From IMG/VR virus record IMGVR_UViG_3300036771_000052, positions 33,862 through 97,861 of that record: DNA of 64,000 nucleotides; one strand, given 5' to 3'. This DNA comes from a virus. Below are positions 27,499 to 27,676 of this stretch, piece by piece (the stretch's first letter is position 1; each line of letters opens with the position of its first letter). A program made the translations under genes and the position numbers. The notes under the pieces are model-generated. The model worked only from the letters and a program-made list of their open reading frames with translations, searched no databases and was not told the DNA's origin.

Positions 27499-27676
27499 TC
27501 GAGTTACGAGGTGATCGACGACCCCGAATCGGAGGATCACCTCGAAGACTTGGGAGGCGGAAGTCAAACTCAGGTGGCCACACAGAGGCTGAGGTGTTGC
27601 GCCAAGCAAAGGCCGACCATGATGCGGAAGTAAGCCTTTCAGCCGCGAGTCGGACCTGCTTTTGCCTCCTTCATGA

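Follow-up and report, generated by a model that had tools for sequence, protein, structure and literature searches.

The closest known systems to the locus described here are those of PlTasA, BlTasA, and MbTasA (Faure et al. 2025, PMC12045711; Xu et al. 2026, bioRxiv 10.64898/2026.09.09.750476; Guan et al. 2026, bioRxiv 10.64898/2026.08.11.744272). They share with it the tandem arrangement of stem-loop units that each carry two 9-nt spacers together with the motifs CCA (box C) and YG (box D), a nuclease-less protein made of a coiled coil and a Nop domain, the placement of some units within coding sequence, and carriage by phages. In characterized tigRNAs, including those of the stem-loop type used by PlTasA, spacers A and B pair with opposite DNA strands (PMC12045711; bioRxiv 10.64898/2026.08.11.744272). 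In the published complexes, a two-fold axis relates the two paired DNA segments, whose 3′ ends are located at the outer junctions (bioRxiv 10.64898/2026.08.11.744272). In SpTasH, each strand is laid out as flank, displaced segment, paired segment, and flank, with position +1 next to the flank. This strand layout, as seen in the SpTasH structures, and the 3′ overhangs give a canonical order, [B][rcA], for the target on one strand. A canonical site was accordingly defined as a strand with, from 5′ to 3′, a copy of B, a gap of 0–2 nt, and the reverse complement of A.

Neither a natural target nor a self-site has yet been described for PlTasA, BlTasA, or MbTasA, and the papers of 2025 and 2026 list the natural targets of the guides and the origin of new TIGR spacers as open questions. 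Both would be informed by a guide pair that finds a match in its own leader. Unlike the targets of these three systems, which pair A and B on different strands, the only good match at the present locus is one-stranded and lies in the leader of its own array.

A stem-loop TIGR array with a nuclease-less Tas protein

The window (the whole 64-kb stretch of DNA that was analyzed) is the right-hand part of a single 97,861-bp contig with a G+C content of 56.5%. The closest named relatives at the protein level are actinophages, and searches of a phage database in near and distant modes found no close relative of this phage. The array and its neighboring genes are located as follows.

27733–30106, + strand: stem-loop TIGR array of 18 units, with the core CA-N9-(C/T)G-nnnn-CCA-N9-NG closed by a GAC/GTC stem
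29130–29927, + strand: TasA-type protein, with a coiled coil and a Nop domain and no nuclease domain
27991–28554, + strand: partner gene encoding 187 aa, with no Pfam family and with tblastx matches in related loci
26839–27363, − strand: helix-turn-helix, repressor-like gene divergent from the array (Pfam HTH_19, 7.8e-10; HTH_31, 4.6e-8)

All 18 units carry the motif of stem-loop TIGR-Tas units, and each is closed by a variable palindromic stem of 6–19 pairs. The tas frame is open from 28551/28959 and runs across the units embedded in it. When the Tas protein was used as a phmmer query, it matched the Nop regions of TasR (9MTY, 6.1e-11) and TasH (3.3e-5). An AlphaFold model of the 265-aa protein (pLDDT 88.9) contains only coiled-coil helices and a Nop fold. 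Foldseek searches with this model returned 9MTY (2e-8), the TasH core (TM 0.68/0.77), and then IS621, and about 236 columns of the model align with TasR and the TasH core. A coiled-coil dimerization region and a Nop domain are therefore both indicated by phmmer, by the model, and by Foldseek. Because the coiled coil and Nop fold occur without a nuclease domain and superpose on TasR and on the TasH core, the predicted structure identifies the product of 29130–29927 as a TasA, lacking a RuvC or HNH domain.

The partner gene contains one in-frame unit (28189–28242). By tblastx, at least nine related loci (L010, L016, L017, L018, L020, L023, L030, L031, and L035) have it conserved immediately 5′ of the array and tas, and its product may be an accessory factor in this Tas clade. 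In many actinobacterial prophages of the clade, the locus has one to three units located ∼400–500 nt inside tas, as reported for BlTasA (L017 8400–8517, L018 8460, L019 8400, L021 8430, L024 8364, L027 8549, and L030 8367–8430). The tas gene of the window has no unit at this position.

A segment of the leader matches the guide modules of unit 3

The region upstream of the array and the unit that it matches comprise the following features.

27470–27499, + strand: promoter-like site (TTGACA at 27470–27475, 18 nt, TAGTGT at 27494–27499), as read from the sequence
27507–27719, + strand: structured leader RNA, with a 5′ hairpin (27507–27544), a multi-branch region (about 27552–27670), and a strong hairpin (27677–27719)
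27581–27602, + strand: 22-nt leader segment, composed of CA, B′ (27583–27591), A (27592), a spacer-A copy (27593–27601), and C
27611–27656, + strand: candidate degenerate "unit 0" hairpin, with a 5-bp stem CCGAC/GTCGG, CCA-N9-AG, and a decayed second half
27856–27905, + strand: unit 3 of the array, with a 10-bp stem, spacer A at 27868–27876, and spacer B at 27886–27894

The + strand of the leader segment reads cacagaggctg followed directly by aggtgttgcgc, whereas the core of unit 3 is CA-GGTGTTGCG-CGGTAACCA-CAGAGACTG-CG. For the comparison of the two, spacers were taken as 9 nt long. The spacer-A copy is identical to spacer A of unit 3 at 9/9 positions, and B′ agrees with spacer B at 8/9 positions, the difference being A to G at spacer position 6. 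A single base, 27592, separates the two halves. The four flanking bases also agree (CA 5′ of B′, A 5′ of the spacer-A copy, and C 3′ of it), which brings the match to 21/22. Both halves are in + strand sense, on the same strand as the array, and their order is B then A. The leader segment can thus be written as [box-C tail + B][box-C tail + A + box-D head], which is a circularly permuted unit core without the stem and without the middle six bases of the loop.

The original prediction had described these letters in the leader and in unit 3, the abutting B-then-A arrangement on one strand, and a distance of about 85 nt from the −10 box. All of this is borne out by the sequence, the match being located ∼82 nt past the box, or about 75–95 nt past the likely transcription start. 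Beyond the 22-mer, the flanks of the leader segment and of unit 3 show no similarity (P 0.15 upstream, 0.73 downstream). Since extended homology is lacking in the flanks, there is no support for regarding the segment as a whole unit that was duplicated and then decayed. Two related candidates were set aside. The similarity needed for the leader to be a relic of a tandem unit 3 with extended homology is not significant, and neither is the number of CCA-N9-YG modules that would make the leader a row of such modules (2 seen versus 0.65 expected).

The leader is predicted to be strongly structured. Folding of 27505–27730 yields −105.3 kcal/mol (z = −5.35 relative to 200 shuffles), and an Rfam search of the leader gave only a sub-threshold snoRNA match, located on the hairpin. 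A generic consensus scan did not call TTGACA-18-TAGTGT as a promoter. The candidate "unit 0" forms a hairpin in the RNA fold, and its letters hint at a degenerate unit-like element. A 15-bp GC-rich hairpin (27677–27719) is positioned directly before unit 1; this hairpin and that at 27611–27656 may act in processing or termination. There are seven occurrences of the 8-bp palindrome GTGGCCAC in 97.9 kb, whereas about 1.5 are expected, and the copy at 27574–27581 abuts the leader segment.

Rarity of the match

In the 97,861-bp genome, the 11-mer aggtgttgcgc is found at 27592 and 27867 and nowhere else, and a check for repeated motifs found the 22-mer to be unique. When all spacer pairs were compared with the genome in eight geometries and with gaps of 0–3, the pairing of the leader with unit 3 was the single best match. 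The next-best matches in the genome carry two mismatches, and they are as numerous as by chance. In a comparison with shuffled controls, as the original prediction had proposed, shuffled spacers reach one mismatch or fewer anywhere in the genome in 4% of 300 trials (P about 0.04). This test took in 17 units, the unit at 28887, which itself has no match, being left out.

One alternative is that a 17/18 spacer-pair match has fallen in the leader by accident. In favor of this explanation, the spacers alone, in eight geometries with gaps of 0–3, give a P value of 0.04 in the shuffles, and the real spacers give about twice the number of 2-mismatch matches that theory predicts. The flanks add only four bases to the match, and these were picked post hoc. 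Exact occurrences of the unit 3 18-mers were also found in IMG/VR, four for the canonical pattern and five for B-n-A, all in unrelated viral contigs, and two of them (L051 and L052) are coding sequence. Similarly, 23 spacer pairs from seven arrays of cluster A1 mycobacteriophages, when compared with the genome of Mycobacterium phage Bethlehem, gave two matches at two mismatches versus 1.2 expected. One of these is a B-A match of 16/18 (expected 0.22), which we take to be at chance level and not a replication.

However, the one match of this quality, that to unit 3, lies within 300 nt of the array. Because it is located inside the array's own 226-nt leader, which makes up 0.23% of the genome, pure chance is unlikely; the joint probability of match and location is about 1e-4 to 1e-3. 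None of 121 real spacer pairs of related loci matches this genome at one mismatch or fewer. The same is true when the 121 units of 25 related loci are compared, in any geometry, with their own flanks (up to 8 kb each). The resemblance between the leader and unit 3 is probably not accidental, and chance is in our judgment an unlikely explanation.

The geometry does not conform to known TIGR targeting

The original prediction had stated as known that spacers A and B pair with opposite DNA strands, and this is correct according to the published work (PMC12045711; bioRxiv 10.64898/2026.08.11.744272). In the leader, both spacer sequences are on the + strand, and the canonical order [B][rcA] does not appear in any reading. 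If the segment is read as opposite strands, it becomes rcB(6/9)-n-A(9/9), which is the reverse order. Complementarity is 17/18 overall, and the one mismatch falls at the central position 6 of B. In both TasR and TasH, engagement is blocked by mismatches at central positions. With both copies on one strand and a single nucleotide between them, tigRNA-3 cannot guide a Tas dimer to engage the leader canonically. A strand that carries rcA, one base, and rcB should be unable to fill both guides of one complex.

A canonical match was seen for the unit at 28587, which finds [B]-2 nt-[rcA] at 37800–37819 with 16/18 positions. It was rejected, as it lies inside an ORF (37714–38034) and such matches occur at a chance-level count.

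Relatives and the turnover of spacers

No homologue of this leader was found in the 25 related loci, and a protein search with the spurious ORFs that run over unit 3 found no homologue. A spurious minus-strand ORF over the leader does have one, P0122, which comes from a contig of 1,084 nt and whose tblastn alignment with the leader includes three frame switches. The leader of this relative was reconstructed by back-translation and retains codon ambiguity. As reconstructed, it keeps both promoter hexamers and the first hairpin, whereas the last base of the spacer-A copy is changed (27601, G to A) and the B′ half gains a base through an indel and has at least one change. A leader segment of this kind is thus present in a relative that is about 4–5% diverged.

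Because some units sit inside the tas reading frame, the proteins of relatives report on their spacers. The Tas protein of P0003 is identical to that of the window at 233/234 positions after residue 52. Nevertheless, the cores of units 29018 and 29079 specify residues that all differ, whereas the stem-encoded residues are kept. Similarly, P0002 (97% identical) differs in the core of unit 29877. Across P0001, P0002, and P0003 (29018–29109 and 29877–29907), the cores are wholly different at 97%–100% Tas identity, and the stems, linkers, and boxes are kept. Since guide cores differ among proteins that are this similar, spacers must be renewed far faster than the protein diverges.

The same pattern is evident within the array. 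Stems matching those of units 2–4 (27791–27966) are found again, in unchanged order, at 28650, 28710, and 28770 (28638–28815), and the spacers are unrelated. The arrangement looks like a three-unit segmental duplication that was followed by replacement of the spacers.

The TasA found in cluster A1 mycobacteriophages is 66% identical and follows five stem-loop units, and the A1 homologues are 236 aa long. In an alignment (A2) of seven A1 arrays, the stems and boxes are invariant, and the spacers are cassette-like alleles that are shuffled among the phages. In Mycobacterium phage Bethlehem (L006 3190–3490), the units are located upstream of gp72, and a search of this phage's genome yielded no target for the A1 spacers. 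TasA of these phages is annotated as a transposase, a DNA-binding protein, or a hypothetical protein.

Discussion

We tentatively prefer the explanation that the 22-mer in the leader and the guide modules in unit 3 arose by copying between the two, through a local DNA exchange in a fast-renewing array, and that the segment has no role as a Tas target. Under this explanation, an exchange between the leader and unit 3 would have left the two copies. The match would then be a historical footprint and not an operator. The match spans all 18 spacer positions and the adjoining box bases and ends there, which is in favor of copying. The direction of copying leans slightly from leader to unit, given that the leader segment is found in a relative that is ∼4–5% diverged, whereas spacers differ even where the Tas proteins are near-identical. 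Several considerations count against this explanation: There is a single instance, no known mechanism swaps the halves, homology does not extend into the flanks, and paralogous units within the array have retained stems but not spacers, which is the opposite of what is seen in the leader. The original prediction had listed a trace of spacer acquisition among its options. This part is compatible with the data and is close to the reading preferred here, but it holds for a single instance and not as a rule.

Fast turnover has a second implication, in that a 21/22 match must be either recent or kept by selection, and the latter would mean function. The original prediction had offered autoregulation as one option. 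TasA with tigRNA-3 would bind the leader non-canonically and tune the promoter of the array and tas, whether by way of the template strand, through an antisense RNA, or as two half-engaged complexes. TasA and dead TasR repress transcription of a gene to which a guide directs them (bioRxiv 10.64898/2026.09.09.750476). Since the Tas of this phage, as modeled, has no nuclease domain, a self-site would do no harm, and the site is promoter-proximal and beside a divergent repressor gene. Pairing of the box C/D type with RNA would require a minus-strand transcript through 27581–27602, and no leftward promoter was established to the right of the site. However, same-strand pairing across a 1-nt linker should prevent one complex from holding both halves, the B′ mismatch is at central position 6, and TasR has no activity on RNA (PMC12045711). 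Furthermore, the arrangement does not recur in the 25 related loci or the A1 phages, and the site is not conserved in the close relative seen through P0122, in which B′ is disrupted. With the canonical order also absent, the autoregulation proposal is left without support, and we regard it, in all of its modes taken together, as improbable.

A general acquisition rule, by which spacer capture takes up a single contiguous B-n-A fragment, with the leader serving as protospacer for unit 3, would account for the coincidence of match boundaries with spacer boundaries and for a leader segment older than the split from the relative in spite of fast spacer turnover, but it is highly improbable, since no B-n-A source above chance is found for the other 17 units here, for the 121 units of related loci, or for the 23 A1 pairs in the Bethlehem genome, and a guide made in this way would not target its own source under the known rule.

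Whether through contiguous B-n-A writing or through TasA reading a same-strand tandem site for its own operon, it is quite doubtful that the leader is the first case of a natural sequence serving a TIGR guide pair as source or partner. We infer instead, with the tentativeness expressed above, that local copying gave the two sequences a common origin and that the leader segment has no function. The match is one unreplicated instance with a geometry that the known mechanism cannot use, and it is thus a lead and not an answer. A firmer by-product of the analysis is the fast, cassette-like turnover of spacers, which is seen in near-identical relatives and in cluster A1 mycobacteriophages. Cluster A1 offers dozens of sequenced, culturable members and a tractable host.

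Two comparisons with CRISPR systems are useful in this context. In type II-A CRISPR-Cas, a long-form tracrRNA that is partly complementary to the cas promoter region autoregulates the system. An RNA-guided effector that damps its own operon is the type of function that was originally proposed for the leader match. In the tracrRNA case, however, the effector uses its normal geometry and the site is conserved, whereas the leader match has the wrong geometry and shows neither conservation nor recurrence.

CRISPR arrays also carry degenerate repeats or units at their ends. Unlike such array ends, the 22-mer keeps spacers without a stem or loop, and the paralogous units of the present array keep their stems and change their spacers. 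The likeness lies in the decay of array-derived sequence beside the array, as represented here by the candidate "unit 0" at 27611–27656.
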